Shown here: piece by piece, positions 507 through 64,000 of the stretch
Position numbering within the stretch: the stretch's first letter is position 1
Layout of the letters: each line of letters starts with the position of its first letter
Assembly: GCA_030390025.1 (NCBI GenBank)
Contig: CM059432.1
Location: 82,338,001-82,402,000, forward strand
Source of the DNA: Squalus acanthias
Lineage: Eukaryota
DNA: 64,000 bases
Direction: 5' to 3'
Notes under the pieces: generated by a model
What the model saw: the letters and a program-made list of their open reading frames with translations, nothing else
Database searches by the model: none
What the model was told of the DNA's origin: nothing
Position numbers and translations under genes: made by a program

Positions 507-671
507 CAGTGTAAATGCTTGCATTAGATGCTGGGATGCCAAACTGAGATTCAATGAACTTGGGAATGAAGGTAATAAAAGCGGTGACGATGGCACTTTC
601 TGCTGTGTATGACAAGCTCACAAACAGGAATGTCATGTTGCTCAAGATCCTGACAGCTGCTTTGGGAATGT
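507..671 (-). CDS. SLCO5A1: SLCO5A1 (OATP5A1) internal coding exon, 165 bp
   Basis: Translates (D)IPKAAVRILSNMTFLFVSLSYTAESAIVTAFITFIPKFIESQFGIPASNASIYT(G), which I recognise as OATP5A1. Acceptor ttgtcatttttatAG (673-672) and donor GTAAGA (from 506). Joins in phase 1 to the exon at 50135-50352 (G+AC = Asp). Confidence 0.95.
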
Positions 672-5240: not shown

Positions 5241-5273
5241 CGCAATGCCATTAGAATGCTCTGGCCGCTAACT

Positions 5274-8915: not shown

Positions 8916-9077
8916 GTCACAGAACTAAAAGCAGTTTAACCCTCTGTAGTCCCTGTCGTTGCTATTAGGAGTAATGTAAGCATTTTGATCAGTGTCTTTT
9001 CTATGAGCATATGCTGTCTTACATTTGTTAATTATTTTCTCTGTAAATGTATACAAATATGTTATTTTTACGATATT

Positions 9078-24314: not shown

Positions 24315-26480
24315 GCTACAACAGTGTAAAGAAGTAAAAAGTAATAGAAGTGTGACGTCACCAGAAAGCAGGTAAGTGATTGGTTGGTGAGTATTTCTAT
24401 ATTTCTCGCTTTTTTTTCCAAATTTGGGCTTCTAAATTTAAGTGTCTTGGTGTAGATTAAAAGATATACCTGTTCCAAATTTTAAAACTAATGAATTAAT
24501 TAATTCAGATGGGAGACCAGGCAATGTGTTGTTGTTGCATGTGGGAGCTGGTGGACACCATTGAGGTCCAAGGCAACCACATCTGCAGCAAATGTTGGCT
24601 GCTCGAGGAACTTCGGCTCAGAGTTGATGAGCTGGAGTCCGAGATTCAGACACTGCGACACATTAGGGAGGGGGAGCGTTACCTGGACACTAAGCGTTGT
24701 GTGAAGGAGTTTTGGGTACTGAGCAGCACTTTGCAGGTTCATTTTGATTTGCCCTTCCTTGTATCGATTTAGCAGAGACTGTGGGAGCTGCACTCTGAGC
24801 TCTTTGCCTGGTACTCTCCATTGTTCTTTCCAGCACATTTGATGTGCAAGTCTCTCCAGGCCGAGATTCAAGGCTGCAATGAACAGGATGTGGATGGAAA
24901 GCAAGATTAACCATCCCCTTTAAGAACTGGCCCGTGCCATTGTGTGTGTGTTCCATTGCTGACTGACATTACATGAGCTTCGCCAGCGCTCTGAGTTAGC
25001 GCCTCACTGCTCGGCCTTTGCGCCTTAAGACAGGTGTGCAGCGCCTGCTTTAGCGCTCCACTCACCTCCCGGGGCGGTAAAAGTGAAGTTTCCAGTCAGT
25101 GCCGATAATTAGCGCCAGGCGCTAATATTTGCGTCCAGACGATATTTGCGCCCCAAATGGGGCGCGACCTAATTTCTACCCCTAAGTTCCAGGAGGCAGT
25201 CACACCCACTAGAGTATTTACTTCTAATTTGGCCCATGGTCAGGGACAGGAGGGTGTGACTACAAGCGAGGCAGGTATTGGGATCCAGGAGATAGTGATG
25301 GAGGAGCCTCTGCCCTTGGCCTTGTCCAACAGGTACGAGATTCTTGCTCCCTGTGTGGACGAGGGCAGGGACTGCAGGGTGGATGAGCAATCTGACCACA
25401 GCACCATGGTACAGGGAGCCATTCAATTGGTGGGGGTAAAAAGAAATGTTGTAGTGGTAGGGGATAGTATAGTTAGGGGGATAGACACTGTTATCTGCAG
25501 CCGAGAGCGTGAGTCCCGAAAGCGGTGCCAGGGTTAAGGACATCTCCTCTGGGCTGGAGAGAAACTTGGAGTGGGAGGGGGAGGATCCAGTTGTCATGGT
25601 CCACGTAGGCACCAATGACATAGGTAGGACAAACAAAGAGGTTCTGCTGACAGAGTATGAGCAGCTAGGGGCTAAATTAAAAAGCAGAACCACAAAGGTA
25701 ATAATCTCTGGATTACTACCTGAGCCACGAGCGAATTTGCATAGGGTAAATATGATCAAAGAAATGAACGAGTGGCTCGAAGACTGGTGTGGGAGAAATG
25801 GGTTTCGATTTGTGGGGCACTGGCACCAGTACTGGGATAAGAGGGAGCTGTTCTGTTTGGACGGGCTTCACTTGAACCATGCTGGGGCTAGAGTCCTGGC
25901 GAATCGAAAAACTAGGGCTGTAGAGAGGGCTTTAAACTAAATAGTGGGGGGGAGGATCCAGGTGAGCGGAAATTTAAAAAGTCAATGATAAATGAGAAAG
26001 CAATAATTCCAGAGAGGAGGGGGTTGACTTATGAGGAAAGGTTGAGCAGGCTGGGCCTATACTCATTGGAATTTAGAAGGATGAGAGGTGATCTTATTGA
26101 AACATATAAGATACTGAGGGGGCTAAACAAGGTAGATGCAGAGAGGATGTTTCTCCTCATGGGGAAATCTAGAATGCGGGGGCACAGTTTTAGAATAAAG
26201 GGTCGCCCTTTTAGAACTGAGATGAGGGGGAATTTCTTCTCTCAAAGGGTCATAAATCTGTGGAATTCTCTGCCCCAGAGAGCTGTGGAGGCTGGGTCAT
26301 TAAATACATTTAAGGTGGAGATAGACAGATTTTTGCAAGATAAGGGAGTGAAGGGTTATGGGGAACGGACGGGGAAGTGGCTTTGAGCCCAAGATCAGCC
26401 ATGATCTTATTGAATGGTGGAGCAGGCTCGAGGGGCCAAGTGGCCTATTCCTGCTCCTATTTCTTATGTTCTTATGTTCA
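24315..26480 (+). mobile_element. CR1 LINE with 5' UTR, ORF1 and 3' end, lacking most of ORF2
   Basis: ORF1 relic 24509-25940: Cys-rich zinc finger and leucine zipper (CCMWELVD...ICSKCWLLEELRLRVDELESEI), then an SGNH esterase (VGDSIVRGID, VHVGTND, DGLHLN). It jumps at about 26005 to GLTYEERLSRLGLYSLE and ends in a (TTCTTATG)n tail. Confidence 0.85.
24694..25182. mobile_element. One-ended Harbinger fragment (right end of the 55707-59924 family) inside CR1 ORF1
   Basis: 24851-25182 is highly similar to 59586-59924. Flanked by TAA at 24691-93 and 25183-85. Confidence 0.85.
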
Positions 26481-32864: not shown

Positions 32865-35750
32865 AAAGTTGGAATTACTCAGCAGGTCAGGCAGCATCTG
32901 TGGAGAAACACAAGTCAGTCAATTGATGTTTCTAGTCTAAGACCCTTCCTCAGGACCGGAAGGTATTACAGATGAACAGCATTTTCAAAGGAACAGAATA
33001 GGGAAAGGGGGAAGGGGAAAAAATAGAGAGAAATAAATAGAATGACTTGTGAAGTGCTTAGGCAGAGAACAGGAGATGGTTAAATGGCAGAAGTGATATT
33101 AGCATGAGACAAACGAAGGCATAATGAGGGAAATCAAAAGAAATAAAAGATATGTACGAGACACAGAGGCTGGAATTTTGCCGGCGCTCAGAGTGCGGGT
33201 TTGGAGGCGGTTTGCTGTCAAAATCACAAAGATTGACAGTGGGTCAGTAACCCGCTATAAATCCGCCTCCTTGTCAGTTTCCCAAGTGTCGGTCTGTCAT
33301 CCCTGAAGTGGCGGGTCAGCCAATTTAGATAGTTAAAAGCTTATTAAAAGGTAGTTAAGAACCATTTTCCCATGTACTTACTATTTTACCAGGTTTTCAA
33401 CGAGGTTCCCGGAGAGCAGATATCACGTCAGGTAATTATGTCGGGCTCTCAATGACTGTGGATTGCTGTGAATAGGTGACAGCTGCAAAGGTGGTATAAA
33501 AGCTACCATTTCACAGCTGTTCACTTCCCAATCTTAGAAGCTGGAGCATTAATGATTTGGAACCCACTTTTGAGCTTTATGCACTTTTGAAGTTTGGAGT
33601 AATCTCTCTATCCACTGTCACCTCCTTGGAACAACCTATCTCAACATTGACAGATTACTTCTGTCATCTCAACTTCAGCTGCCATCTATTCCATCAGCAT
33701 TAGTGCCCTTGAAAAAATCTCACCTTGGTCCTCAGAGTCCCAACACGATCAGCCCCAACACCAGCATCACCGGGCACACCAGCAAACCAACATCCACACC
33801 AGCTTTCTCCGCAATCAACTGATGCTACACTGGACACAGGGCAACAGCACCCGACCACATTGCTGGCCGGGAGGCCAGGGATGGCCTCACCATAGCCAGA
33901 TTTGCTTCACTTAACACTGCACACCCTGGCTGCCACATGATGCACCAGGTTGGCACCACCCCACACCAACACCATAAAGCATCCCTACAATGCCCAAGCC
34001 ATTCCTTTCACACTCATCACCATTGCGGGGGGGGGGGGGGGGGGGGGGTGTGGGGGGGGGAACGTTACGTCTCACCATTCACTGGAACTCACTAAGACAC
34101 TTTCAAAGGTGCACACAAATCTGTCCGAGAAGGCAAAGTGGTGAAAATAAGGATTTCAATGCTTGACAACACATTAACAGAAAGTTTACACAAATATTGC
34201 CTAAACACCCAAGTGCCTACCCTTGTGTGTTGTTAGTTGGTATGATTGGACTAGGATGAGGGTGAGGGTGAGGGGTGGCTAGTGAGATGGGGAAGTGATA
34301 ATATAGATAGAGAGGGATGGGTGGAGGTGCAAGGTAAGTTGGTGTGAGTAAGGATGTGCAAGAGTAGGGTAGGGAAGGCAGAGTGATGGGGAAGTGATGA
34401 GTGGTACAGGAGGATGAGGTTGAGTGTGGCTTTGCAGTAACGTTTCATGATCTATTGTGATCATTGAAAGGTTTGCGCCACTGCAGCCTGGTCCTCCTGA
34501 CAACATCCCTGCTTGTGTCTTCCTGTGCAATGTGCAACCAGGCTGCGTTGGTCTCCTGTGGAGGTCTCTTCCGCCCATTGGAAGGGAAGAGAACCTCCCT
34601 GCGTGCTGTGACTCCCTCCATAAGCATATGAAGGGAGTCATGGGAGAGCCTGGGTGCAGCCGTGCACCTCTGTGCAGTGCTGGTCAGTGTTTGCAGCACC
34701 TCAATGCTGTAGAACACTGACAGCACAACTGTCAAAATGAATGTGGACATGGCCCCTTTAAGGAAACTGGCTGATGACGCGTCATCAGATGACGACATCA
34801 GGCCCGCTTCCTTTTAATTGGCCGGGAACCTTGCAGGGCGGGCTTAACAAGCCCAATCAGGGTAAAATCACTTGGAGGAGGTGGGATGAAAACGGGAGCG
34901 GGGTTTGAGGCCGCCGCCTACTCCGGCCGCACTGGACTCGCCACGGCTGGTGAAATCGCGGCCAGAGAGTGTATGATTGGCTAATGGGGATAGGTAGAAA
35001 GGAAAGCATGACAAAACAGAAAAACAGAGCAGGCTCCAGTGGCCTGGGAGCCTGGTGGAACAAAAAAAGCAGGTCAACACCAAGGGTGCAGGACACCCTG
35101 CAGTAATGTTCCGAAGGGGGTGTCCCCACCCAAAGTAACAACCTGCTCCCTATCCCACCAACCCCCATCCCTGAAAATGCCAGCACACACATCTCACTTT
35201 GCCAGAAACTACTGCCAGAGAAAAAATGGGAGTGTAATTAAGGTCTGAAGTTGTTAAAGTCAATGTTAAGGCCAGAGGGCTGCAAAGTGCCGAGTAGAAA
35301 GACGAGTTGCTGTCCTTCAAGCTTACATTAAAAGGCCAAGGACAGATGTGATCAGCAAAGCAATCAGCTAATCTACATTTGGTTTCCCCAATGTAGAGGA
35401 CATTGCATTGTGAATTGGAAATGCAGTCTACTTGGTTGGAGGAAGTACTTGTAAATTGTTGTCTCACGCAGAAGGAGTGTTTGGGGGCCCTGGACAGTGG
35501 TGTGGGAGGCGGTGAATAGGCAGGTTATCTCCAGCACTTGCATGGGAATGCGCCAGGGGAAGGACAGTGGATGGTAGGGATGATGGAAGATTGAACCAGG
35601 ATGTCACAGAGGGAACAGTCCCTTCGGAAAGTTGAGAGGTAGGGTAGGGGAGGGAAGAGGAGGGGAGGGAATAGGAGGGGAGGAGAGGGAAGAGGAGGAG
35701 AAAAAGTGTTTGATGGTGGGATTGCCTTGGAGGTGGTGGAAATGGCAAGG
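32865..35750 (-). mobile_element. Decayed Penelope-like retroelement, split by a Harbinger
   Basis: GIY-YIG-like peptide FTSTSSNQVDCI...CNVLYIGETKCRLADCFADH (about 35350-35460). The terminal sequence at 32865-32950 resembles Penelope ends as I recall them from sharks. Confidence 0.6.
33168..34963 (-). mobile_element. Non-autonomous Harbinger element (family A, copy 2)
   Basis: TIRs GGCTGGAATTTT / GAAATCGCGGCC and AGA TSD. Colinear with the reverse complement of 5274-7028. Confidence 0.88.
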
Positions 35751-36158: not shown

Positions 36159-38623
36159 GGCATAGAAATTTGATTGCACAGTGCTCATTTTACGGGCAAG
36201 AAACGGGTGCTGAAGGGTCCAATAAGATGTGCAGCGTGTGCGTGTTCAGTCTGCGCTGGAAGTGCACCGCACACCATATTGGTTCAGGATCCCTTAGTCG
36301 AGCAGGAGGCCTGGCTGAAACAGGCGATAGGCCCATCGCCTATGCAAATCAGCGGCCTAATGACTGATTCAGGCCACTTTGCCAAATTGGAGCACAACTG
36401 AGTGACTCGTGCTCTCAGTTTTCTCGGGTGTACAACAGCCAAACTGGCAGACCTTAAAGGGACCGCTGGAAGCCGCCGCCAAAAAAGTAAGTAGGAAGAG
36501 CAGTCCTGGCTCCTTGCTAAAACCGCCGCGGGCTGCTATTGGCCTGTGCTCACCCCTCCTCCTATTGACTGCCTCACTCCCACCTCCCAGAATTACCTGC
36601 TGCAATCGGTCCATGTCCCAGCCAACTGATCTCTCCCCCCTGGTGATTGGTCAGTGTCCCAGCCAACTGATCTCTCCCCCTGGCGATCAGTCCATGTCCC
36701 AGCCAACTGATCTCTCCCCCTGGCGATCAGTCCCTGTCCCAGCCAACTGATCTCTCCCCCTGGCGATCGGTCCATGTCCCAGCAACTGATCTCTCCCCCT
36801 GGCGATCGGTCCATGTCCCAGCAACTGATCTCTCCCCCTGGCGATCGGTCCATGTCCCAGCCAACTGATCTCTCCCCCTGGCGATCGGTCCATGTCCCAG
36901 CAACTGATCTCTCCCCCTGGCGATCGCCCCGTGTCCCAGCCAACTGATCTCTCCCCCTGGCGATCGGTCCATGTCCCAGCAACTGATCTCTCCCCCTGGC
37001 GATCGCCCCGTGTCCCAGCCAACTGATCTCTCCCCCCTGCCAATCGGTCCATGTCCCAGCCAACTGATCTCTCCCCCCTGGCGATCGGTCAGTGTCCCAG
37101 CCAACTGATCTCTCCCCCTGCCAATCGGTCCATGTCCCAGCCAACTGATCTCTCCCCCCTGCCAATCGGTCCATGTCCCAGCCAACTGATCTCTCCCCCC
37201 TGCCAATCGGTCCATGTCCCAGCCAACTGATCTCTCTCCCCTGCCAATCGGTCCATGTCCCAGCCAACTGATCTCTCCCCCCTGGCGATCAGTCCATGTC
37301 CCAGCCAACTGATCTCTCCCCCTGGCGATCAGTCCATGTCCCAGCCAACTGATCTCTCCCCCTGGCGATCGGTCCATGTCCCAGCAACTGATCTCTCCCC
37401 CTGCCAATCGGTCCATGTCCCAGCAACTGATCTCTCCCCCTGGCGATCGCCCCGTGTCCCAGCCAACTGATCTCTCCCCCCTGCCAATCGGTCCATGTCC
37501 CAGCCAACTGATCTCTCCCCCTGGCGATCGCCCCGTGTCCCAGCCAACTGATCTCTCCCCCCTGGCGATCGGTCAGTGTCCCAGCCAACTGATCTCTCCC
37601 CCTGCCAATCGGTCCATGTCCCAGCCAACTGATCTCTCCCCCCTGCCAATCGGTCCATGTCCCAGCCAACTGATCTCTCCCCCCTGCCAATCGGTCCATG
37701 TCCCAGCCAACTGATCTCTCCCCCCTGGCGATCAGTCCCTGTCCCAGCCAACTGATCTCTCCCCCCTGGCGATCAGTCCCTGTCCCAGCCATCTGATCTC
37801 TCCCCCTGGCGATCGAACAGTGTCCCAGCCAACTGATCTCTCCCCCTGGCGATCGGTCAGTGTCCCAGCCAACTGATCTCCCTCCCCTGCCAATCGGTCC
37901 ATGTCCCAGCCAACTGATCTCTCCCCCTGGTGATCAGTCCCTGTCCCAGCCAACTGATCTCTCCCCCTGGCGATCGAACAGTGTCCCAGCCAACTGATCT
38001 CTCCCCCCTGGCGATCGGTCAGTGTCCCAGCCAACTGATCTCTCCCCCCTGGTGATCAGTCCCTGTCCCAGCCAACTGATCTCTCCCCCCTGGTGATCAG
38101 TCCCTGTCCCAGCCAACTGATCTCTCCCCCTGGCGATCGAACAGTGTCCCAGCCAACTGATCTCTCCCCCTGGCGATCGAACAGTGTCCCAGCCAACTGA
38201 TCTCTCCCCCTGGTGATCGGTCAGTGTCCCAGCCAACTGATCTCTCCCCCCTGGTGATCAGTCCCTGTCCCAGCCAACTGATCTCTCCCCCTGGCGATCG
38301 AACAGTGTCCCAGCCAACTGATCTCTCCCCCCTGGTGATCGGTCCCTGTCCCAGCCAACTGATCTCTACCCCCTGGCGATCGGTCAGTGTCCCAGCCAAC
38401 TGATCTCTCCCCCCTGGCCATCGGTCAGTGTCCCAGCCAACTGATCTCTCCCCCTGGTGATCGGTGAGCTGCCTCTGGGGCCATGCTTGGCGCCCGCCGC
38501 TCACCGCAAATATTCAAATGCAGCAGGCAGACCAACTTCCTATAGCTGTGCCACCAGCATCTTTCAGAGTGTGCCACTGCACCCAGATTACACCCGAATT
38601 CGAGCGTGTCCAATTTCTAGAGC
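36159..38623. mobile_element. Harbinger-type MITE inflated by an internal minisatellite
   Basis: Imperfect TIRs GGCATAGAAATT / AATTTCTAGAGC with flanks CAA/TAA. Confidence 0.55.
36603..38465 (+). repeat. About 40-bp minisatellite (GTCCCAGCCAACTGATCTCTCCCCCTGGCGATCGGTCCAT), about 46 units
   Basis: Direct tandem periodicity of 39-42 bp, with variable C-run length. Confidence 0.95.
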
Positions 38624-50134: not shown

Positions 50135-50352
50135 CTTTAAAGTCCTTTCCAAAACCCATAGAGGAAGTGACGGCGCTCTTTCTATGTTCGCTGCTGCCAG
50201 ATTTCTCTTTCATCATCTCATCATCACTGTTTGAATTAGTCGAGCCCATTTTCTTTCTTTTCTTCTGTCGAGGTGGTAGTTTTTGGGGGAAAGTGAACAT
50301 TGGCACTATAACTAGAAGCATGGCAATCGCACAAAGCAAAAATCCACTCCAC
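50135..50352 (-). CDS. SLCO5A1: SLCO5A1 internal coding exon, 218 bp (upstream of the 507-671 exon)
   Basis: Translates WSGFLLCAIAMLLVIVPMFTFPQKLPPRQKKRKKMGSTNSNSDDEMMKEKSGSSEHRKSAVTSSMGFGKDFK, a TM helix plus cytoplasmic loop of OATP5A1. Acceptor ccttgcAG and donor GTGGGT. The spliced reading is FGKDFK-D-IPKAAVRIL. Confidence 0.95.
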
Positions 50353-50638
50353 CTGCAAGGTTTTTTTGGGGGGGGAGGAACAAGAAAAGAATACAAGGCA
50401 AAAACATGATGAGAATTTGTTTTTGGATTATTGTGAGACACAAATCAATTCTATAATAAATATTGTGTTGGATCTAGAATTTCATTAAAAACATAAGAAT
50501 AGGAAAATGTTATTGTATCAAAAGACACAAAGCTCAAATCTACATGATCAATATAGAATAGGCAAGGTCAAAAATAGATCATAAATAGCCTCCCTGCCAA
50601 AAGAAAATTGATACAGGAAGTTCTAGAAATTACATATT

Positions 50639-51482
50639 GGGCTCAATTTTCACCGGCCCGTGGAGGCGGGTTTGGAGGCGGGAGTGGTGTGAAAATAGCA
50701 GATTCGGGGGTCCCGAACCCATCCTGCCCCCAACCCGCCTCCATGCCAGTTTCGCTGGAGGCGGGTACCCGACCTGTGCTGGGACCCGCCTCCCCGAGGC
50801 GGGAAGGGGATTAGTGCCAATAAACTGCCTGTTAACAGGTAGTTAACAGGCAGTTTTTTGCCTAATCCCTATTTTTAGCCCTTAAGTGTGGGCTTCCCGA
50901 CAGGTCCGAACCACGTCGATTTAGCGAGGCGGACCGTCGGTCTGGAGGGCTTGGAGGGGTCGAGATGTCCGGTGTGCAGGTGAGTGATGGGTGCATGAGT
51001 GCAGAGGTAAGTGTGTTTGGCGTGTGTAAAGTGTTTTAAGAACTTTTACTTACCTTAACTTTGTCCTGCAGGCTAGCTTCCTTAAGGTGTCGGGAGTCCC
51101 TCACATCCACGGCACAGAAAGCAGAATGGCCGCGGAGCTGTTAAAAGCTGCAGTCTCTGCTTTCTGTGCTGGATTGATTTCTAACTGAGTCTAAGTACAG
51201 GGACTCAAGTTAGAAATCATATTGTCAGTGTTTGCCTGCTTCACAGAGCTGTCAAACGCTGAAATTTCATCTGTCAAAAGCTCTTGACAGATGAAATTTC
51301 AATGGCTGACGTCACCTGTATCCAAGGGACCCCTGATTGGCTTGCTGAGCCCGCTGGGCGGGCTTAACAAGGTCAATCAAGGGAAAATACAGTGGGTTGG
51401 CTACAAGTCAATGGAGGCGGGACGGCAACCCAAAAAGTGGGAGTCCCGCCTCCATCACGTCCCCATTGACAAAATCCAGCCC
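50639..51482. mobile_element. Harbinger-type MITE, 844 bp
   Basis: TIRs GGGCTCAATTTT / AAAATCCAGCCC and ATT TSD. Contains internal palindromes. Confidence 0.82.
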
Positions 51483-53259
51483 ATTATATCAATTCAATAC
51501 AGATAATAAAACACTGTGGGGGCAAAATTGGCCTCGGTAGCGCCCGTTCTTTGGCGCTAAGAGTATCGTTAGGGTTCAAAAATAGCGTCTACGCCACGCA
51601 TGCACACTTCTGACATGAAGCGCGCTGGATGCCATCTTGGTAAAGGGGTTAGTGCATGCACGCTTAATGCCTGCTGGAAGTATGCAGAGCAGGCAGACCA
51701 TGATGTCAATCAGCGTGTGCACTGATTTGACACCAGCGCTGCCATTTTGGAACTCCACGCTCCAGCCGACGCCCTCTCTTAACCTCGCATAGCTGAACAT
51801 GCGTTAAGCAGCATGAAGGACCCCCCACCAGCGCTATTTAAAGGGATTATCAACTTCTTACAGGTTAGTTGCTGGTTTATTTCCGCTGGCTGTTGCTACA
51901 ATTCTACACAGTTTTGGTGCTTTCCATACTTGTTGCAAGTTTCAAAAGTTACAGGGAGTGGTGTGGCAGGTGCTGAAGTACTTTTTGCTGACTTCAAGGC
52001 TTCCGCACAAACCAGGTGCTCCCAGACATTGGTGCACTTGGAGGCCTTCCTCTTGGAATTGAGAAAGACTGGGAGAATGAGCAGAGGCCACGCAGAGCAG
52101 GACAAGCAGCTAGAAGAGGGAGGGGGAGGAGGAAGAGGAGGACGAGGAAGAGCAGGAGGCGAAAGAGGATGAAGAGGAAGGGAGGCTACTACCTAGACAG
52201 CCACTTTCTGCCCAGGCTGTACGTGAAGAACTAATTCAAGTGCGATACCAGTAATCTCAACCCCAATTCAACCAACAGTCCCACACTCCTTACCTTCCCT
52301 CTGTTACTGACCATCACATCGTCCTCTTGGCCCCAATGCAAAAATAAAAGCCAACACAAAATACACATTCCAAACCAAATTTATGAATTAAATTATTGCG
52401 TATTGCTTACAAACTTAAACTAATCATCCTTCTGCATTCCCAAGAGCCTGTCTCCGTGTGCCTTTGCCTGTCTGAATGCTCTGACGCTGTGCTACTCCAG
52501 TGGCTGCAGCATGGCTGGTGGAAGGCTGCTGACTTTCAGTGGAGGAGACTGCAGATGGCCTTGGAGGACGACCTCGAGCAGCTCTGGGCCTAGAAGGCCT
52601 GGCTTCAGACTGTACCATCTCGGCCTGGGCGAGAGCAGTCAGGGCTGGCTGGCTGACAGGCAACCGCAAGGGCACTGGTGGAGTGGCAGGGGTGGCATCA
52701 CGAATGCTGTCATCTTGAGAGAGGACAGCAGGTTCGTGCTCCATGGGGCCACTGCCACTCCCCCAGGGTGGTGCCTCAGCAATGCTAGTAATCTGATGGA
52801 GGACAGATTGTTGGACTGCTGTGACACTCTGCAAGTCCCTTTGAACAATAGTATCCACAGCCATGATGGTCGGATTTTTGGTGGAAGCTGCTTGTGCTGC
52901 AATGGAAGCTGAGACATCGGCCATCAGATGGTGCATCATGCTTGGGTCCACAAGTGTGTTGATGGAGTTGACCACTAGTTCCTTGCTGGACAGGATCGGC
53001 TCGAAGCTCTAGGCAAAGCCCTATGCAAAGTTGCTGCCAGACTCCTCCATGCTCCTTGACATTGAATGCAGGCTTTCTGGCAGGCTTCCCAATACACAAA
53101 GCATTTTGTTGTGTACACCCATCAGCCTTCCCCATAGAAGTCCTCAACTGAGTTCTGTTCAGCAGAACTCGTGTGCGACCTCGCCCTCCGGCGAGCTGGA
53201 ATCTGACTATCCTTGCCCCTGCCCCGGCGGCAGCGCACTTGTGCCCGGTGTCTCACTAC

Positions 53260-53390
53260 CGATGTTCCCTACAAGCTGCGCTTTGGTCTGCGCGGCCTGT
53301 TTCTTTTCATTTAAATTTCTGTGCATGCGCGGTATGCAGTGAGCGGCCTGCGCAGGAGCTTTGAGATTACACACCTTAACGGGAACATTG
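53260..53390. mobile_element. hAT-type MITE, 131 bp, nested in the Myb exon-3 relic
   Basis: TIRs CGATGTTCCC / GGGAACATTG and 8-bp TSD CTCACTAC/CTCACCAC. Same termini as 20806-20965. Confidence 0.8.
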
Positions 53391-53965
53391 CTCACCACAT
53401 GCAGATCCTGCCTCTATGCTATCCTCAAAAATAGCGGACTGTCAGTATCTGAGCTGGTGAATGCGACTGTGAAATCGGGTGACGGTGTATCTTCATCATC
53501 ACTGTCTTCTTGGTCTTCCTCCACTGCCTGGGCAGGTTGCACTTCTTGGGTATCTGAAAGGAAAAAGGGACAAGGATAAGATTATGGTGAGGGGAGAGGG
53601 GAAAGTAAGAAGTGCATGGTTACACCATGTGCAGCTTGTAAGTCAGAAGAGATTGTGAGATGAGGGGGAAGTGGGATGTGAGAAGGAGGATTAGGTGTGA
53701 GGATACCATCATCTTCAATAGATTCAGCCCCGAGGCTGGCCACGGATTCAGCATTGGCCCTTCCCATTATGGCCAGCACTGTTTCCTCCATGGGGGTTAG
53801 AACACGCAGGTGCGCCTCTCCATGTCCGGTTAGTTCCAGCTGCCTCCGATTGCATGCCAGCTTCTCCTGCAAGAGAGAGGGAAGTGTGTCAGTGAGTGTC
53901 GTGCAATATGTTTGGGTGATGTGGCTGTCATAGCTGATTAGCTGGCAGTGTGTGCAAACTGTGAG

Positions 53966-54870
53966 ATTTGTTTTATTCGTTCCTGGGATGTGGGTGTCGC
54001 TGGCAAGGCCAGCATTTATTGCCCATCCCTAGGTGCCCTTGAGAAGGTGGTGGTGAGCCGCCTTCTTGAACTGCTGCAGTCCTTGTGATGAAGGTACTCC
54101 CACAGAAGAGATTGTGAGATGAGAGACTGTTAGGTAGGGAGTTCCAGGTTTTTGACCCAGCGACGATGAAGGAATGGTGATCTATTTCCAAGGCAGGATG
54201 GTGTGTAACTTGAAGGGTTGCTTGCAGGTGATGGTGGTGGAGGGAGTGAATGTTTAAGGTGGTGGATGGGGTGCCCTTCAAGCGGGCTGCTTTGTCCTGG
54301 ATGGTGTCGAGCTTCTCGAGTGTTGTTGGAGCTGCACTCATCCAGGCAAGTTAAGAGTATTTCATCACACTCCTTACTTGTGCCTTGTAGATGGCGGAAA
54401 GGCTCTAGGGAGTCAGGAGGTGAGACACTCGCCGCAGAATACCCAGCCTCTGACCCGGTCTTGTTGCCACAGTATTTATGTGTCTGGTCCAGTTAAGTTT
54501 CTGGTCAATGGTGACCCCCCAGGATGTTGATGGTGGGGGATTCGGTGATGGTAATGCCATTGAATGTCAAGGGGTGGTGGTTAGACTCTCGCTTGTTGGA
54601 GATAGTCATTGCCTGGCACTTGTGTGATGCAAATGTTACTTGCCACTTATCAGCCCAAGCCGGAATGTCGTTCAGGTCTTGCTACATGCAGGCATGGACT
54701 GCTTCATTATCTGAGGAGTTGCGAATAGAACTGAACACTGTGCAGTCATCAACGAACATCCCCATTTCTGACCTTATGATGGAGGGAAGGTCATTGATGA
54801 AGCAGCTGAAGATGGTTGGGCCTAGGACACTGCCCTGAGGAACTCCTGCAATGATGTCCTGGGGCTGAGA
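53966..54870 (-). mobile_element. CR1-Zenon-like LINE 3' portion, nested in the Harbinger Myb intron 1
   Basis: Peptides [30 protein letters not shown] and IQDKAARL. Same 3' UTR as 3440-4015. Confidence 0.85.
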
Positions 54871-56217
54871 TGACAATTGGTAGGATATGGCATTTGAAGC
54901 TGCATTCACTGATCTTGACCACTCGTGTGAGGTCATTAAACTTCTTGCGGCACTGCATCCAGGTCCTCGGGGCTAAACTTCTGGCATTGACCTCTGCGGC
55001 TATCTGTTACCACTGCCTTGTTATTATGTGTTTGGCGGGCCTCCTGCTCCCCCCCCCGCCCTGCGGATACAGGACATCTCTCTGCCTTTCCACCTCCTCC
55101 ACCAAGACCTCCAGTGCAGTGTCGGAAAACCTTGGTGCCCGCTCTCTCCCATGGTCAGCCATTGTTCTTTGTTGCACAACACTATTCCGAATGATCTCAG
55201 CACCTCCAGCAGCCACAATGCATCTTCCCTTTAAGAGGTGCAGGCTAACTTTAAGTAGTACTAGCAAGTAACAATATTGGGCCCCCTGCTGATGTGTGCA
55301 GCCAATGAACAGCGTGGTTAGCGTTGGCTGCATGCAGCAATAATTATAATGAGCAGGCAGCACGAAGTTGGTGAGCTGCCTGCATTACTTTGAACGGGCG
55401 CGGGGTAATCGCGCATCACAATCCCCACGCCCCTCTTCTGGGGCTATCCAATTTAGGCCCCACAGAGGCAAAAAGAATATTTATAGAAAGCAAGATTGAC
55501 TCAGGCTAGTTTCAAAGGTACGGTGGCCTACCTCAGGAGCAAGACACAGTATAACCCCATTCCAGTCAAATAGTCAATCCTAACAAAAGTTGGTTGGTAA
55601 TCAGTATCATTATTATCAATAAAAGAAATTAATTCAGCAGTCCTGTATCATGTTTAAACTGTGCAAAATGAGAGACAATCAACACTTATTACAAGTAAAA
55701 CACCCCGGGGTAAAAATTCAGTTGGTTGCGCCTCCCGTTAGCGCCTTAAGAGGGCGCTAATGGGGCGCAAAGCCGCTAGCGCCCGGGCGCAGCGATGTTT
55801 GCGCCGCTCGGGAACTTAACTAGAGATTGTGCGGCGGCGCTAAACTTTACCGCCGCGACCACCTGCGCGCGCAGATTGTGACGTCATTCCATGGTGCAAC
55901 GCCCTTGTGGCGCCCCGGAGCGGAAATTGAGTGGCGCCCCCTGCCTTACCGCCTGGCGCATCCAACGACCGGAAGACTGGAACGCTATCAATCGCTGTGG
56001 GGCTGTGGGGGGCGCTATTTAAAGGGGGCCTCTTCCTGTCTTTTTCTGTGGTTGACATTTATGCACCACTCGTTCTGAGAGAGAGAGAGAGATTCGGAGA
56101 GAGAGAAAGAGAGACTTCTGCATTGAGTCAACGCTTTGTGAGGTAGTTTTGCCTACTGATCCTAACTTCGCTGCCACTTTGGTTGCTGTCCTTCATTACT
56201 TTGCTTGCAAAGAGACT

Positions 56218-57373
56218 ATGGGGGCTGCACTGATTGGGGGCGTCGTCCTGCTCCAGCTGAATCGGAGGACACAGAGACGCAGAGAGTGGTAATGATGGCC
56301 AGACGGAGGAGGGCCAACAGGCGTATGTACAGGAGAGCTTACCCTCCCAGGGTATATCGTGAACAGCTCTCCTACATTCATATGTCTGAGGAGCTGTGTT
56401 TGCGAAGGCTGCGATTCAGCAAGGAGGTGGTCACTGAGCTCTGCCACCTGCTGCAGCCAGATCTGCAGCCTCAACTGAGGTCCAGGACGTCTCTGTCGGT
56501 GGCAGTGAAGGTCACAGTTGCTCTCAACTTCTATGCTACTAGCTCATTTCAAGCTGCTGCTGGGGACCTCGCCAATATCTCCCAGTTCGCGGTGCATTGC
56601 TGCATCCGGCAGGTCACAATGCCCTCTTTAAAAGGAGACGAGAGTTCATCTCTTTCCCCATGACCGCAGACAAGCAGCGTGACCGCGCTCTGGGCTTTGC
56701 GAGGATAGCGGGCTTCCCCATGGTGCAGGGCGCCATTGACTGCACGCATGTGGCTTTGCGTGCTCCACATGAGAATGCCGAGGAATTCCGGAACAGAAAG
56801 GGGTTCCATTCCTTGAATGTTCAGTTGGTCTGTGACCACAGACAGCTGATACTCGCTGTCAATGCCCACTATCCTGGCAGCTGCCACGATGCTTTTATCC
56901 TGCGCCAGACTACTGTGGCAGAACTTTTCGAGGCACCGCATCAGCCAGTTGGTTGGCTTCTCGGGGACAAGGGGTATCCATTGAGCACCTGGCTGATGAC
57001 ACCGCTCCGTACGCCCAATACCCCTGCTGAGCTGCGGTACAATGAGAGCCATCAAGCTACCAGGAACATCATTGAGCGCACAATCGGCGTGCTGAAGCAA
57101 CGGTTCCACTGTCTCGACCATTCTGGAGGAGCCCTGCAGTACTCGCCTGAGCGAGTATCCAACTTCGTAGTTGTGTGCTGCATGTTGCATAACATGGCAA
57201 TCGTCAGGACCCAGCCAATGCCACCAGGCCTTGGAGCACCACCAGAGGAGGAGGAGGAAGAGGAGGAAGAGGACGAGGAGGATGATCATCAGCAGCACCA
57301 AGGCGGGAGGGCGGCCCACAATGATGAAACTGCAAGGGCCGTCCGTCAACGGCTGATAGCAAGCCGCTTCTAG
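56218..57373 (+). pseudogene. HARBI1-like DDE transposase with two apparent 1-bp frameshifts
   Basis: Reads MGAALIG..., RAYPPRVYR...LRFSKEVV...AVKVTVALNFYA, GAIDCTH, NRKGFHSLNVQLVCD, PGSCHD, LLGDKGY and RNIIERTIGVLKQRF. Frame changes near 56290 and 56617. Confidence 0.92.
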
Positions 57374-57685
57374 GGCCCCTGCTGTGGAAATGGCTTCTGC
57401 CATTGCTAACAACATCAATGAACCCAGCACGCAACCCCTAAGCCGGCCAAGGCACCAATAATTCCAAACACCAAACATGTATATTTTGAATACAAAAACT
57501 TATTTATTTTACAAACTCTGTGTGTGTCATTTCCTCATGACAAACTCATAGAAATAAACACAAAAAAACAGTCAATAACATAACTGGTTCTCACAACCTG
57601 GAGATAATGTCCAAAACACTAAACAAAAGTTGGACCACGAACCTCGGCCTTTAATAAAAAAATGACCAGCATTTTGTCACACCTC

Positions 57686-59559
57686 CTACTTTTTGCCCTT
57701 CGAGGGTGATCTCCTTCCCTTGCGCACTTCCCCCCTTCTAACCCTACTGCTCCTCCGTAATGGGACCTCAGTGGCTGCAGCAAGGCTGGTGGAAGGCTGC
57801 TGATCGTCAGACCCTGACACTGCAGATGCCCCTGAAGGACGGCCTCGACCAGTTCTGGGCCTGGAGGGCCCGGCTGCAGACTGCACCAACTCTGCATGGG
57901 CGGCAGCAGTCTGTCCTACAGGCGGTGGCAAGTGCAGTGGAGAAGTGACAGTGTTGGCAGCAGGAATGCTGTCATCGTGAGAGAGGACAGCAACTCCCTG
58001 CTCGCCCGACACACTGGCACTCCCACGGGGCAGCACTTCAGCATCCGGAGCAATCTGCTGGAGCACAGATTGCTGGCCTGCTGCGGCGCGGTGAGAGCCC
58101 CGGGGACATGTGAACGAACCATCGAGGTTGGCAGCAGTCAGTGCTCGCGTGGCCTCAATCTGAGTCTGCATGAGAGCAGTCAGAGATGGGATCACGGCAG
58201 TCAGTGACTGAATTGCAGCACTAAGCGTTAGTGTGGCATCTGCCTGTGCTACAGCGAAGTGCTCCACACTCCTTGCCAGTGACTCAATGCATTTGGGCAC
58301 CCTTCCCACTGCACCCATGAGCTCAGTGTGCATGCCCACCGCCTGGGTGTTCATTTCTGCGATCAGCCGCTCCTCCTCTGCGTCCATTGCAGTAGGAGTC
58401 TCTGGCATACTCTCCCTCTGGGGAGAAGGCCCCCGTTCTTCCCTACCCCCATGGCGTTGCTGCAGCCCGCTGGGTCCTGGAGCTTCACCCTCATCAGACC
58501 CTTCCCCCCTGCTCCCCTCCAGGGAAGGCGTGTTCCCAGTGTGGGCATGGGCTTCCTCGGGAGAGGGTGGCACTGATGCTCCGGCTTCCTCTTCCTCCTC
58601 GGCTGCAGCTTCACTCTCAGTGGCAGCTTCAGGGCCCGTCTCCTCAGCTGGTGAATCACCATCTGAAAGCAGGGAGGTACAAGAGTGGCTTTAGCGTGAG
58701 GACAGGGTGGCAGTAAGGGAGGAATAAGTGCAGCGAGTTAGCAAGTTGGATTGAAAGTGTCAAAGGCTGGTGTTGTGAGGGACAAGTGGAAGGACAGAGG
58801 ACAAAAAGGTGATGACCTTACCATTGCTGTCCAGAACGGGGTCGGCGTCTCCAGTGGCGACGGGACCGATCACCCGGCTTGCCACAATCCTGTGGACGCG
58901 CTCCTCAAGATCGCTGAGGGGTTGCAACTGAGGCCGCCCTCCACCTGTCCGTTGCTGCTGTCTCCTATTATGCGCCAGCTTGGCCTGCAAGAAAAAGGAC
59001 AGCATCTGAGTAAATATACAGCCATGGTCTTGCCTGATGTGCCTCCCATAGGTGAATAGCCCTTACTGTATGCAGCCATGGTCTTGCCTGTTGTGCCTCC
59101 CATAGGTGAATAGCCCTTACTGTATGCAGCCATGGTCTTGCCTGATGTGCCTCCCATAGGTGACTAGCCCTTACTGTATGCAAAGTGTGGAATGTGTGTG
59201 TGTGTTTCATGAAAGGGCCATAGGTGTTGGATGAGTGTTGTGCATTGGGGTTTTAAGACCCTCTGGCCATAGAGTGAGGTTGAGATGGAGGGATGGAGAG
59301 GTATTGAGAAAAAGCCACTCACCCTGACGACCCGAGTGAGGTCGTTGAACTTTTTGCGGCATTGAACATGTGTCCTGGGCACCATGCTCCTGGAGGAGAC
59401 GCTCTGAGCCACCTCCCTCCACACTCTTCTGTACTCGCGTGGCAAAGGCCTCCTGCCACTCTCAGGGAAGAGTATACATCTTCTGCGCTCCACCGCGCCA
59501 ACCAGAGCATCCAAGGCCCGCTCGGTGAAGCGATGAGCTCGTTCTCTCACCCTCTCCAT
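57686..59559 (-). CDS. Harbinger Myb/SANT-like DNA-binding protein, three exons (59323-59559, 58822-58984, 57686-58662), 458 aa
   Basis: Exon 1 MERVRERAHRFTERALDALV...VWREVAQSV...RTHVQCRKKFNDLTRVVR is a Myb/SANT-like (MSANTD/NAIF1-type) domain. GT-AG introns in phases 0 and 1. The spliced 1377-nt ORF has no internal stop. Confidence 0.85.
59020..59181 (+). repeat. 3 x 54-bp tandem repeat in Myb intron 1
   Basis: AGCCATGGTCTTGCCTGATGTGCCTCCCATAGGTGAATAGCCCTTACTGTATGC starts at 59020, 59074 and 59128. Confidence 0.95.
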
Positions 59560-60319
59560 CCTTGGCAGCAAAATGGATTCACAGGTCTCTCCAGGCCGAG
59601 ATTCAAGGCTGCAATGAGCAGGGTGTGGCTGGGGAGCAAGTTGCCCCCCCCCCCCCCCGCCTTAAGAACTGGCCGGCGCCAGTATGTCTGTGTTCCCTCG
59701 CTAACTGGCAGCACCTGCGCTGCGCTCGCGCGCTGAGTTAGCGCCTCACTGCTCGGCCTTTGCGCCTTAAGACAGGTGTGCAGCGCCTGATTTAGCTCTC
59801 CACTCACCTCCCGGGGCGGTAAAAGTGAAGTTTCCAGTCAGTGGCGATAATTAGCGCCAGGCGCTAATATTTGCGTCCAGACGATATTTGCGCCCCAAAC
59901 GGGGCGCGACCTAATTTTTCCCCCCCCAATTCTTACAATAATGGTATGCTTGAAGAATACAAAATGTCTGATTTTCATATGGGAGCATCTCTATAAAGGA
60001 TGTGCTGCATTAGCCTTTTCAAATCTAACATCAATGAATGATTGCAATGGACAGTTTCAATGTTTGCTAAGAGTCAGCAGGTTCCTCTCTCCCAAACAGA
60101 AATTGACAACAATGAGCCTTTAACTGGGTCAGGAATTAGGACTGTAACAAGTGTAAGACAGAAACAATCAACTCTGTTAAACTCTCTGCCACAATGTGCC
60201 TCCCACTGACCCTAATTGTTCCAACAGTTTGCATTGACTTGGGTTTTCCCAAATCATTTCATCTCCTGAGGGACACACATTACCACAAGTAAAAACAAGG
60301 AGCCTTGGATTTAAACAGC

Positions 60320-60530
60320 AACAACTCATATTTATATAGCGCCTTTAACATAGTAAAACGTCCCAAGGCGCCTCAAAGGAGCACTATAAAACAAAATTTG
60401 ACACCGAGCCACACAAGGAGATATTGGGGCAGAAAAGAGGTAGGTTTTAAGGAGCGTCTTAAAGGAGGAAAGAGAGGTAGAGAGGCGGAGAGGTTTAGGG
60501 AGGCAATTCCAGAGCTTAGGGCCTAGGAGC
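60320..60530 (-). mobile_element. L2-type LINE 3' end
   Basis: ATTTATATAGCGCCTTT...CGTCCCAAGGCGC is the reverse complement of the tail shared with the DeuSINEs. Confidence 0.6.
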
Positions 60531-61629
60531 TAACGAGAGCGATGAATTTAAAGTAATTAAGATCACTAGAGAAAAAGTACTTCAGAAACTAATGGGACTA
60601 AAAGTTGACAAATCCCATGGACCTGATCGCCTACATCCTAGGGTTCTAAAAGAGATAGATTTTTACAGAGTCAGCTGTGGCTCAGTTGGTAGCACTCTCT
60701 CCTCTGAGTCAGAAGGTTGTGGGTTCATGTTCCACTCCAGGGACTTGAGCGCAAAAATTTAGGCTGACACTCCAATGCAGTGCTCAGGGAGTGCTGCACT
60801 GCCGGAGGTGCTATCTTTCGGATGAGATGTTAAACCGAGGCCCCGTCTGCTCTCTCAGGTGGATGTAAAAGATCCCATGGCACTATTTTGAAGAAGAGCA
60901 GGGGGGTTATCCCTGGTGTCCTGGCCAATATTTATCCCTCAATCAACATAACAAAAACAGATTATCTGGTCAGTATCACATTGCTGTTTGTGGGAGCTTG
61001 CTGTGTGCAAATTGGCTGCTGCGTTTCCTACATTACAACAGTGACTACACTTCAAAAGTACTTCATTGGCTGTAAAGCACTTTGGGACGTCCGGTGGTCG
61101 TGAAAGACGCGATATAAATGCAAGTCTTTCTTACTTTCTATTTTTAGATTTTTGGACTCTAGAGGAATCAAGGGATATGGGGATCGGGCGGGAAAGTGGA
61201 GTTGCGGTCGAAGATCAGTCATGATCTTATTGAAAGGCGGAGCAGGCTCGAAGGGCCATATGGCCTACTCCTGCTCCAAATTCTTATGTTCTTATGTAAG
61301 AGTTGGCTGCAGATAGTGGATGCATTGGCTGTGATCTTCAAAAATTCCCTAGATTCTAGAACGGTCCCAGCGGATTGGAAGGTAGCAAATGTAACCCTGC
61401 TATTCAAGAACGGAAAGAGAGAGAAAATAGGGAACTAGAGAGTAGAGATAAACGGGTCGTTTTCAGGTTGGCAGGCTGTAACTGGTGGGGTGCCGCAAGG
61501 ATCAGTGCTTGGGCCTCAGCTATTTACAATCTATATTAACGACTTAGATGAAGGGACTGAGTATAATGTATCCAAGGTTGCTGGTGATAGAAAGCTAGGA
61601 GGAAAAGTAAGCTGTGAGGAGGACACACT
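60531..61629 (+). mobile_element. Fragmented CR1 with a nested DeuSINE and a CR1 3' tail
   Basis: Peptide LMGLKVDKSHGPDRLHPRVLKE resumes at about 61300 as IVDALAVIFKNSLDS. A separate CR1 tail lies at about 61147-61297. Confidence 0.7.
60669..61135 (+). mobile_element. DeuSINE (SacSINE1/AmnSINE1-like), full length
   Basis: tRNA-like head TGGCTCAGTTGG...GGGTTCATGTTCC, central Deu-like domain GGATGAGATGTTAAACCGAGGCCCCGTCTGC, and L2-like tail TATAAATGCAAGTCTTTCTT. Confidence 0.85.
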
Positions 61630-64000
61630 GGGCTAAAATTTCGGGGGTTTAAAGCCACCCGTTACACCAGATTCGGGGGGAAAAATGGCGGCCGCCACTC
61701 TTCCGCCTGCTGCCAGCGGTTCCCGTGACGGCCACCGTTTTTGTGTGGCCAGCAGCGCTGCCGATGTCGGTGCTCGTCAAAATTATGTAGATGATGCAGA
61801 TCGTGACGTCAGTGAGTGTGCAATGCTCAACTGACGCCCGATCTGCGAGTTTTGAACTTCGCCGCTCCACTTACCGGCATGCCTTAAGTGCGACCAGCTG
61901 AGCAAGCGTTGACCAGCAGGAAGGAGGCTCCAGCAGTGGTATTTAAAGAGATCATTAGCAACCACTTGCACCTGACATGTTTCTGCAGTTTGACTGGCTC
62001 TGGGCAACTTTCTGCAACTCCAGCAGCTTTATTAACTTCTTTCAAGGTTCTAAGGTAACAGAGAGTGTTGGGGAAAGTGGAGAACACCTTCATTCTGATT
62101 TAATGGCTTCTGCTCACAACACTTGCTCACATTCATGGGGGCTGTACTGGTAGTCCCCCTCGCACCCGAGTATCTTAGCGAGAGGGAGCGGAGGCAGCGA
62201 CGAAGAGATGATGCGCGCAGAGGGAGGCGGAGGAGGGCTCTCAACAGGAGGCCTTACCCACCTAGGGTCTTCTGAGAGCACTTCTCTTATATCCACTTAA
62301 GCAAGGAGCCGTGTATTAGGAGGCTCCGCTTCACCAAGGAGGTGGTCCTAAAATTCTGCCACCTCCTGCAACCAGACCTGCAGCCTGAGAGCAGGGTGAC
62401 CACGGCTCTCCCAGTGGCAGTCAAGGTCACCGTGGCCCTCAATTTCTTCGCCAGCGGATCCTTCCAGTCTGCAGCAGGAGACATAGCTAACATCTCACAG
62501 TTTGCCGCCCATTGCTGCATCCAGCAGGTCACCGCGGCTCTCTACACCAAGAGAAGGGACTACGTTTTCTTCTCTCTGAGCAGAGAAGCAGGACTAGCGC
62601 GTATGTGGCTTTGCCAGGATAGCGGGCTTCCCCATGGTGCAGGGCGCCGTCGACTGCACCCACGTGGTTTTGCAGGCGCCACATAACAATCCTGAGATTT
62701 TCCGTAACCGTAAAGGCTACCACTCACTTAATGTGCAGTTGATGTGTGACCACGCCCAGTGCTTCCTGATGGTCAATGCCCACTATCCTGGCAGCAGTCA
62801 TGATGCCTTCATCCTACGTCAGTCCGGTGTGCCAGCAATCTTCCAGCCACCACATGAAACTCGAGGGTGGCTGCTTGGAGACAAGGTCTATCCGCTCTGC
62901 ACCTGGCTGATGACTCCCCTCTGCAACCCCACCACTCGTTCCCAGCACTCTTCTGATAAGAGCCATGCTGCCACCAGGAACATCATCGAGCAGACTATCG
63001 GGCTACTGAAGCAACGGTTCCGCTGCCTTGACTGCTCGGGGGTAGCCCTCCAGTACTCACCGGAGCGGGTGTCTCATTTCGTGGTGGGCTGCTGCATGCT
63101 TCACAACTTGGCCATCATGAGGGCACAGCCCTTGCCAGCAGGGATTGCGGGACCACCTCAGGAGGAGGACGAGGGAGAGGAGGAGGAGGAAGAGGAAGAT
63201 GAGCAGGAGGAGGAGGACGAGGAGGGAGGAGGCAGGTAGCCAAACCCATTTCCAGACAGGCTGTCCGTCAACACCTCATCAGACTCCGATTCCAATAAAT
63301 GAAACCCCAGATCCCCGTTGCTCACCACATCCCCATCATACCATCCCTCTGTCACGAAATATCACAGCGTCCTCCTGGGCACAAAGCTGAAATGAGAGAC
63401 ACCACAAAAGGTTCCAAACAAAATTAATAAATTTATCAAAAAACAGTTTACACATATGATATCAACTAATCACCCTTGTGCAATCCTTAGTGCCTGTCGT
63501 TCGGGTGCCATTTCCTGATCTAGTGCTCCTACGAAGTGCTCCCCCAGTGGCTGCAGCATGGCTGGTGGAAGGCTGCTGTGTTTACGTGGCCAAGACTTCA
63601 GATGGCCTTGCAGGATGACCTCGAGCAGCTCTGGCCCTAGAAGGCCCGGCTGTAGACTGCACCACCTCGGCATAGGCAGAAGCAGTCTGGGCTGGCTGGC
63701 TGACAGGCAGCAGCAAGGGCAATGGTGGAGTGGCAGTGGTGGGAACAGGAATGCTGTCATCCTGAGAGAGGACAGCAGGGTCCTGCTCCACTGATCCACT
63801 GCCACTCCCCCGGGGCAGCACCTCAGCATCCCTAGCAATCTGTTGGAGCACGTATTGCTGGGCTGCTGCGACACCCTGCAAGCCCCGGTCGACACTGGTA
63901 AACCCAACCACAATGGCAGCAGTCTGATCTTGGGTGGCAGCAAGCTGAGACTGCATTAGAGCGGTCTGCGCTTCCGCTGCAGCACTAAGACGTTGGGCCG
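61630..64000 (+). mobile_element. Second Harbinger transposon, running off the window edge
   Basis: Left TIR GGGCTAAAATTTC, a transposase relic, and the convergent Myb exon-3 tail at 63470-64000 on the minus strand. Confidence 0.88.
62135..63300 (+). pseudogene. HARBI1-like transposase pseudogene
   Basis: MGAVLVV...RRPYPPRVF* with TGA at 62273-75 (likely CGA>TGA), a frameshift near 62600, then GAVDCTH, LLGDKVY and NIIEQTIG. Confidence 0.88.

Follow-up and report, generated by a model that had tools for sequence, protein, structure and literature searches.

The element and its ends

The window analyzed here is a stretch of 64,000 nucleotides from the spiny dogfish Squalus acanthias (assembly GCA_030390025.1, contig CM059432.1, positions 82,338,001 to 82,402,000 of the forward strand), and it holds a two-gene PIF/Harbinger transposon at positions 55707-59924. 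An original prediction, made from the letters alone, had described this locus as a young, near-autonomous Harbinger with both terminal inverted repeats (TIRs), a CCC target-site duplication (TSD), a transposase keeping its D/D/E motifs and needing only two single-base corrections, and a convergent, spliced Myb/SANT partner gene. The features of the element are as follows (a dot marks features without a strand).

55704..55706 (.) left TSD copy CCC, with AAAACAC just before it; from the sequence, the end being fixed by loose contig ends
55707-59924, two-gene PIF/Harbinger copy, full length, 4.2 kb
55707..55720 (+) left TIR, starting GGGG, matching the right end at 11 of 14 letters; from the sequence and loose ends in runs X8 and X9
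55707..56026 (.) left subterminal region, CpG-rich (observed/expected 1.15), with TAGCGCC five times in either orientation
56016..56023 (+) TATA-like box upstream of the transposase, a putative promoter, from the sequence
56218..57373 (+) intronless DDE transposase gene carrying two frameshifts; with placeholders put in, it reads through to about 386 aa
56280..56281 (+) lesion 1, where other copies have four more letters; the surroundings are AG-rich
56541..56543 (+) codon 110, which is Ser here, while 93% of 56 homologs have Gly
56617..56618 (+) lesion 2, lacking a single letter that other copies have
56738..57076 (+) codons of the catalytic triad, D 56738, D 56966 and E 57074 (D176, D252, E288), all intact
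57503..57658 (.) A/T-rich spacer between the convergent genes
57686..58662 (-) Myb exon 3, with an acidic stretch, a conserved middle and a basic C-terminus
58663..58821 (-) Myb intron 2, GT-AG, phase 1; RNA-like contigs from other copies skip it
58822..58984 (-) Myb exon 2
58985..59322 (-) Myb intron 1, GT-AG, phase 0, with three 54-bp tandem repeats inside, by homology
59323..59559 (-) Myb exon 1, Myb/SANT trihelix domain (PF13873)
59605..59924 (.) right subterminal region, with TAGCGCC three times in either orientation
59911..59924 (-) right TIR, from the sequence and a loose X17 end behind 59924
59925..59927 (.) right TSD copy CCC, from the sequence

Contigs of four sequencing runs, namely X3 (DNA), X8 and X9 (RNA-like) and X17, were compared with the window. 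About 55% of run X3 was read, and its short contigs do not align across gaps. For substitutions, the results given below cover 40 rows out of 229, and for joints 15 out of 55; the indel table is complete at a 10% threshold (7 rows).

Contigs from other insertions break off exactly before 55707 (four in X8 and eight in X9) and exactly behind 59924 (one in X17). Both CCC copies sit within C-runs; because the ends are fixed by other insertions, a 3-bp duplication of CCC is nevertheless consistent with the sequence. The TIRs are short and imperfect (11 of 14 letters, and 15 of 25 over a longer stretch), and the pair, being too weak, is missing from the 25 inverted repeats (out of 32) that were shown for the window. 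Position 5 of the right TIR is unlike both the left TIR and a sibling end at 25182. In a single X3 contig, 59924 is followed by 55707 after 11 intervening letters; either two copies were inserted head to tail with a few bases separating them, or the contig stems from a circle containing filler.

The 3' piece of the transposase matches Pfam DDE_Tnp_4 (PF13359) with an E-value of 3e-40 over 158 of 158 profile positions, and Myb exon 1 matches Myb_DNA-bind_5 (PF13873) with an E-value of 2.7e-9 (37.3 bits, cut-off 21.7). The locus thus shows four features of PHIS elements: short TIRs whose first base is A or G, a 3-bp TSD at both fixed ends, a Harbinger-type DDE transposase, although the gene is frameshifted twice in this copy, and a separate second gene that carries a Myb/SANT domain. 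The two-gene identity, the TIRs, the CCC duplication and the intact D/D/E motifs were all as originally predicted.

A transposase gene broken twice

The transposase gene runs from an ATG at 56218 to a stop at 57373. A total of 226 relatives were found, and the 120 listed are mostly from sharks and rays. The best match is 65% identical over the whole 250-aa query, and identity reaches at most 67% among the 120 listed proteins, in which, judged by these identities, the family itself is not represented. In a quick tree of search hits only (68 rows), the transposase falls among sawshark copies (a set of 22, support 95). The same tree contains short-branch clades with one shark or ray protein per species (P0041/P0043/P0047/P0048, P0012/P0036/P0038/P0044 and P0010/P0011; support 99-100), which by their branching look like domesticated Harbinger transposase genes. 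A PDB sequence search with the transposase piece gave no matches.

At both lesions, the frame is open in other copies. Four extra letters follow 56280 in the whole X8 depth (391.8 of 391.8), in all of X17 (35 of 35), in part of X9 (230.5 of 599.2) and in one X3 contig. One extra letter follows 56617, or 56616 in a second variant, and the frame changes at 56618 in 8 of 8 homologs tested. The only other transposase indel listed is a 2-letter gap at 56928 (X9 253.6 of 253.6, X3 5071 of 604984, X8 0). Moreover, Ser110 is the sole deviation among 55 columns that are at least 85% conserved, as judged from 56 homologs of at least 340 aa taken from the 120 listed. Two single-base corrections do open the frame arithmetically, and lesion 2 is indeed a single letter; lesion 1, however, amounts to four letters in other copies, and the Ser at a 93%-conserved Gly comes in addition. 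The assembled copy therefore does not have both open reading frames (ORFs) intact and, as written, cannot make a whole transposase.

Long-read errors are common in simple sequence, and both lesions are small deletions in such sequence (one AG-rich, one next to AA), so that both frameshifts might be assembly errors in an intact autonomous element. The intact catalytic triad would agree with this, as would the share of the sequence words present in the DNA runs of organism A, which is only 0.79-0.82. We nonetheless consider it improbable, since many substitutions, including Ser110, are absent or nearly absent from all four compared runs, and since the changed right TIR fits real decay. In addition, organism A DNA holds about 0.3 more of the words than RNA-like runs or runs of other organisms (about 0.1 of this possibly being flank), which indicates that many of the rarer letters are real.

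A probably spliced Myb/SANT partner gene

The Myb gene is convergent to the transposase gene, and joining its three exons through the GT-AG introns yields 458 aa followed by a stop, in agreement with the original prediction. Poly(A)-like hexamers lie in the spacer between the two genes (plus strand 57553 and 57653, minus strand 57503 and 57650) and may serve both of them.

Two splice junctions had been proposed for checking. The intron 2 joint 58662/58822, with ends CT..AC, was found in X8 (depth 210.8, one contig, 18 letters on the short side) and in X9 (depth 90.2, two contigs, 42 letters on the short side), with none in X3 or X17; the 15 joints shown, out of 55, do not include junction 59323/58984. 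This skip of a canonical intron, together with a different letter spectrum, favours RNA as the source of X8 and X9.

For intron 1, colinearity with homologous proteins supports splicing. P0123, P0126, P0128 and P0133 are gap-free across junction 1, and so is P0121, with a gap just after it; P0122 aligns from residue 72 only, and the remaining Myb relatives start later. P0123 is colinear over residues 5-455 of the Myb protein (38% identity, E-value 6e-92). These relatives number 14, and those with names are shark gene models (9 of 13 looked up). For exon 3, a word-index search found none among 8000 candidates, and an exhaustive search gave 13 matches. Furthermore, an acceptor occurs at the corresponding place in two diverged relics of the window, and one of these also has intron 2, with its phase unchanged. 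Splicing of the Myb gene is thus likely for this family. Exons 2 and 3 have no Pfam annotation, and a PDB sequence search with the Myb exon gave one chance match (E-value 0.92).

Among the relatives, the sawshark gene model P0128 encodes a 682-aa protein in which three Myb-like Harbinger units follow one another in tandem. The three 54-bp tandem repeats within intron 1 (59015-59182) are 97% alike, and raised X17 depth there suggests that other copies have 54-bp repeats too.

A highly repeated family, its divergence and its age

Summed X3 contig depth, which is not a copy number, ranges from 126,163 to 1,864,193 over the element and from 8.67 to 17.4 on its flanks, and a run of only 9 million letters contains 0.51 of the sequence words. 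In view of this thousands-fold gap in depth and of the words in so small a run, the family is highly repeated. The distance from this copy to the nearer long pieces is 27 of 2202 letters in X17, 14 of 1275 in X8 and 20 of 1824 in X9. Among the eight long pieces listed per run, six lie 1.1-1.2% from this copy and two at 7-8%, pointing to at least two subfamilies.

The complete indel table contains no indel in the Myb coding exons. Among the substitution rows shown, 19 are coding sites, of which 12 change the residue, seven do not and none changes a stop. Judged by the indel table and by the substitution rows shown (a further 189 are not among them), both genes look open in the family majority. 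As a template for reconstruction, which the original prediction had recommended, the family majority thus qualifies and this copy does not; a vertebrate Harbinger has, besides, already been reconstructed (PMC3016246, PMC2836001).

With the epaulette shark mutation rate of 7e-10 per site per generation (PMC10587355), a divergence of 0.5-1.1% corresponds to 7-16 million generations, with the confidence interval extending this to 3.5-79 million. This figure dates the present insertion and not the last jump of the family. The rate is that of a different species and may be higher in CpG-rich repeats, and subfamily differences as well as any assembly error are counted in the distance. The family had been called young; its divergence from other copies is indeed low (about 1.1%), yet at millions of generations the word is relative, and youth in time is not supported. 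At this age, the chance that the Myb frame is intact is about 0.2-0.4 (0.63-0.81 for no stop times 0.27-0.52 for no indel, assuming 2-4 indels), and the open Myb frame therefore needs no selection.

Near-identical family members occur under five organism labels, A to E: while organism A DNA has the largest share of the words, the share in runs with the labels B, C, D and E is 0.49-0.62, or about half, as expected for the family majority. Such a spread might suggest horizontal transfer, which has been reported for Harbinger elements in fish (PMC9179366) and sea kraits (PMC8437027). Three observations make this explanation highly unlikely. First, another organism C run from the same study holds 0.00 of the words. 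Second, X17 covers a neighbouring Harbinger end and both subfamilies, like trace or low-coverage shark DNA; its right flank presumably corresponds to a shark CR1 tail, which it resembles. Third, sharks evolve slowly. Close relatives or mixed samples explain labels B to E without horizontal transfer.

Which copies are expressed

At 13 or more sites, X8 and X9 both carry a non-window letter at full depth. Their contigs accordingly come from other copies, although contigs drop rare variants; neither run has cover on the unique flanks. At 56154, the letter that dominates in RNA has 451 of 363,940 in X3, 391.8 of 391.8 in X8 and 359.6 of 379.8 in X9. At 56541, T has 137 of 51,229 in X3, 280 of 409 in X8 and 181 of 181 in X9. 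The letters at these two sites are thus shared by RNA-like runs of two organisms and make up less than 0.5% of the DNA depth, which suggests that a few loci common to organisms A and B supply most of the RNA. The T variant encodes Cys at the conserved Gly, and the DNA majority letter, with the codon read by hand, gives Gly; given the Cys residue, the expressed transposase itself may be impaired.

These data bear on whether the family is still mobile, with intact copies elsewhere making both proteins and transposing in the germline today. This is compatible with the explanation that we prefer for the present copy, and we regard it as possible, if unlikely. In its favour, X8 contigs over the transposase list only frame-opening indels, two organisms show splicing of intron 2, a likeness of at least 99% is reached by 7955 of 38316 aligned X3 contigs, and ongoing Harbinger accumulation has been reported in the coelacanth (PMC5381603). 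Against it, majority letters common to organisms A, B and E suggest that the burst predates their split, if they are distinct species, and 0.5-1.1% amounts to the 7-16 million generations given above. Moreover, the variant dominant in RNA is the one with Cys at the conserved Gly, and an X9 contig has the 2-letter gap at 56928 at full depth.

The host gene and the question of host use

Two exons of an OATP/SLCO-family gene lie on the minus strand of the window.

50135..50352 (-) exon of the host's OATP/SLCO-family gene, downstream of the element when read in host orientation
507..671 (-) the host OATP/SLCO-family exon that comes next

Both have canonical splice sites and matching phase, and they correspond to profile positions 217-341; earlier host exons are therefore expected past the right end of the window. 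A weak search with a few motifs found no upstream host exon in 50353-64000. From this arrangement, we infer that the element is intronic in an OATP-family gene, with its Myb gene sense to the host. The same orientation had been claimed relative to SLCO5A1: the minus-strand exons agree with this, and the exon look-up yields 'OATP' only, the paralog name SLCO5A1 coming from no analysis here.

The Myb frame is intact and sense to the host, with two acceptors and poly(A)-like hexamers, and Harbinger Myb genes have been domesticated repeatedly (PMC9392472). It is thus conceivable that the host uses the Myb gene of this copy, either under selection or as a gene trap in the OATP transcript. We hold this to be very improbable. 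As estimated above, an intact frame is expected by chance; at 13 or more sites, the X8 and X9 contigs differ from the window over their full depth; and five other Myb-bearing relics in the window are also sense to the host. A domesticated gene would be a single conserved locus without mobile ends, whereas this one keeps its TIRs and TSD and belongs to a highly repeated family, with a depth thousands-fold that of the flanks.

Other Harbinger relics in the window

About ten Harbinger relics lie within the 64 kb. Apart from the element itself, five of the Myb-bearing relics are sense to the host and two are antisense. An orientation bias (6 of 7, P 0.125) was considered at first and dropped when a second opposite relic was found at 27660.

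A second Harbinger (51518-55461) lies 245 bp upstream and has similar ends, with its transposase mostly deleted. Its Myb gene has the same intron layout, with the first donor mutated and a putative retroelement-like insert of about 0.9 kb in intron 1; its flanks, TGT and ACA, match in inverted and not in direct orientation, leaving no clear TSD. At 61630-64000, a two-gene Harbinger with stops and frameshifts runs off the window; it is 72% identical in DNA over the transposase and 84% identical to a sawshark protein. The deleted sibling at 24700-25182 aligns gap-free with the right end of the element (24796-25182), and its last approximately 190 bases are about 97% identical to that end, with TAA following; its inner parts are only about 70% alike, which suggests a chimeric end or strong constraint on the end. 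An inverted relic pair with a Myb exon (5272-7033 and 33163-34965) is 86% alike. Further Harbinger relics lie at 8625-8919, 12.1-14 kb, 27660, 32.2 kb and 42.9-43336. Besides these, the window contains long tandem arrays at 22275-24314 (44/88-bp periodicity) and 36596-38468.

Subterminal repeats and target site

The motif TAGCGCC occurs five times in the left 320 bases of the element, three times in the right 320 and not at all in the 3578 bases between. None of 300 shuffles reached this count on the left and none of 300 on the right, in a test that is post hoc, the motif having been picked from the same data. By analogy with Harbinger3 (PMC2836001, PMC9392472), these repeats are the best candidate for the Myb-binding site.

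A 15-bp target consensus has been described for Harbinger3_DR (PMC3016246). The reconstructed empty site, a single site, matches this 15-mer at 9 positions, including the whole left arm AAACAC; matches of at least 9/15 occur at 1028 of 127,970 window positions (0.8%), and the extended comparison is based on one site and one loose-end consensus with an agreement of 0.5. Flanks at the ends of other copies read TAA/G, C/TAA, ATA/G and C/TCT. The NuwaII rule C/TNA/G fits the end at 25183, the right side of the X3 joint and the X9 consensus. The present insertion (C/CCC/A) departs from it, as do X17 (ATA/G), the consensus from X8 and the X3 joint on its left side. Membership in NuwaI, which has a CWG TSD, was rejected, given CCC here and TAA, ATA or TCT at the ends of other copies.

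Comparison with known PIF/Harbinger systems

In PIF/Harbinger transposition, both proteins are needed, and the Myb protein binds the ends and the transposase (PMC2836001, PMC9392472). The zebrafish elements Harbinger3_DR/Harbinger3N_DR were reconstructed by Sinzelle et al. in 2008 (cited in PMC3016246, PMC2836001 and PMC9392472). Compared by description, the present element shares with Harbinger3_DR a DDE transposase with a Myb-like partner, short TIRs, a 3-bp TSD and the left target arm AAACAC. It differs from it in the TSD, which is CCC here and TAA-like in other copies rather than CWG, and in the right target arm. With the NuwaII group (PMC4482050), also compared by description only, it shares two ORFs, TIRs that start with GG, a similar length (4.2 kb against a mean of about 4.7 kb) and, in the flanks TAA/G and C/TAA of other copies, a likeness to C/TNA/G; its own insertion C/CCC/A and a TIR match of 11 of 14 set it apart. 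Potentially active two-gene families that keep both frames intact are common, numbering 88, 11 and 22 in the three PHIS groups described in the same source (PMC4482050).

Related copies that bear no family name occur in sharks and rays, among them Pristiophorus japonicus and Heptranchias perlo, where their products are annotated as 'putative nuclease HARBI1' or as uncharacterized Myb proteins (65% identity for the transposase and 38% for Myb). Expanded, expressed Harbingers have been reported from Pleurodeles waltl (PMC5741667), teleosts (PMC9179366) and the coelacanth (PMC5381603). Like these, the present family is a high-copy vertebrate family whose Myb and transposase genes are probably transcribed; unlike them, it has a cartilaginous-fish host and belongs to a separate clade in the quick tree. 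The domesticated genes HARBI1, NAIF1 and MSANTD1-4 (PMC9392472) contain the same protein domains, but they are conserved single-locus genes, whereas this element is repeated and has ends, a TSD and a broken transposase.

Within sharks, PIF-Harbinger is listed for the whale shark (PMC8455134), and Harbinger is reported as undetected in the elephant shark (PMC9179366). The main text of the spiny dogfish genome paper does not mention Harbinger, its repeat table being in the supplements. A paper devoted to shark Harbinger families was not found in a search that lay outside most subscription journals and Repbase/Dfam.

Interpretation

Taken together, it is highly probable that the locus is a full-length copy of a highly repeated PIF/Harbinger family, that its transposase gene is broken twice, and that it likely inserted into an OATP intron and has decayed without selection since. 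Several points weigh against this interpretation. The lesions are known from the assembly, so that assembly error is possible; neutral decay is not proven, the substitution counts being too small for a test; and the RNA nature of X8 and X9 is a guess. As for splicing, X9 record 31 runs unspliced across the intron 1 donor (depth 382.9), and the X8 joint over intron 2 has just 18 letters on its short side. Finally, a common family stop, or junction 1, could hide in the unshown rows and joints.

The course of events can be sketched by analogy with Harbinger3_DR and Ping/Pong. For source copies, the expected role of the spliced Myb protein would be to attach to the ends of the element, with TAGCGCC as the candidate site, and to bring the transposase into the nucleus and onto those ends. 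The DDE enzyme would then cut the element and paste it into a loosely palindromic 15-bp target with the left arm AAACAC, duplicating 3 bp. Provided that the right end, imperfect as it is, can still be recognized, the present copy could move in trans; its Myb frame is likely open only because there has been too little time to break it.

It is unlikely that this family, at its very high copy number, is still kept mobile by a few intact source copies, in two related species, which would supply spliced Myb and full-length transposase RNA and still mobilize full-length and deleted copies. If true, this would provide a natural vertebrate Harbinger for which no ancestral repair is needed; its central target triplet would be relaxed, and its Myb site, TAGCGCC, could be tested. 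The analysis adds to a well-known class a well-defined family with a gene structure and a candidate Myb-binding motif. If its source copies are mobile, the family would represent a natural two-component vertebrate transposon for the study of end and target choice by Myb, and possibly a driver of shark genome size.

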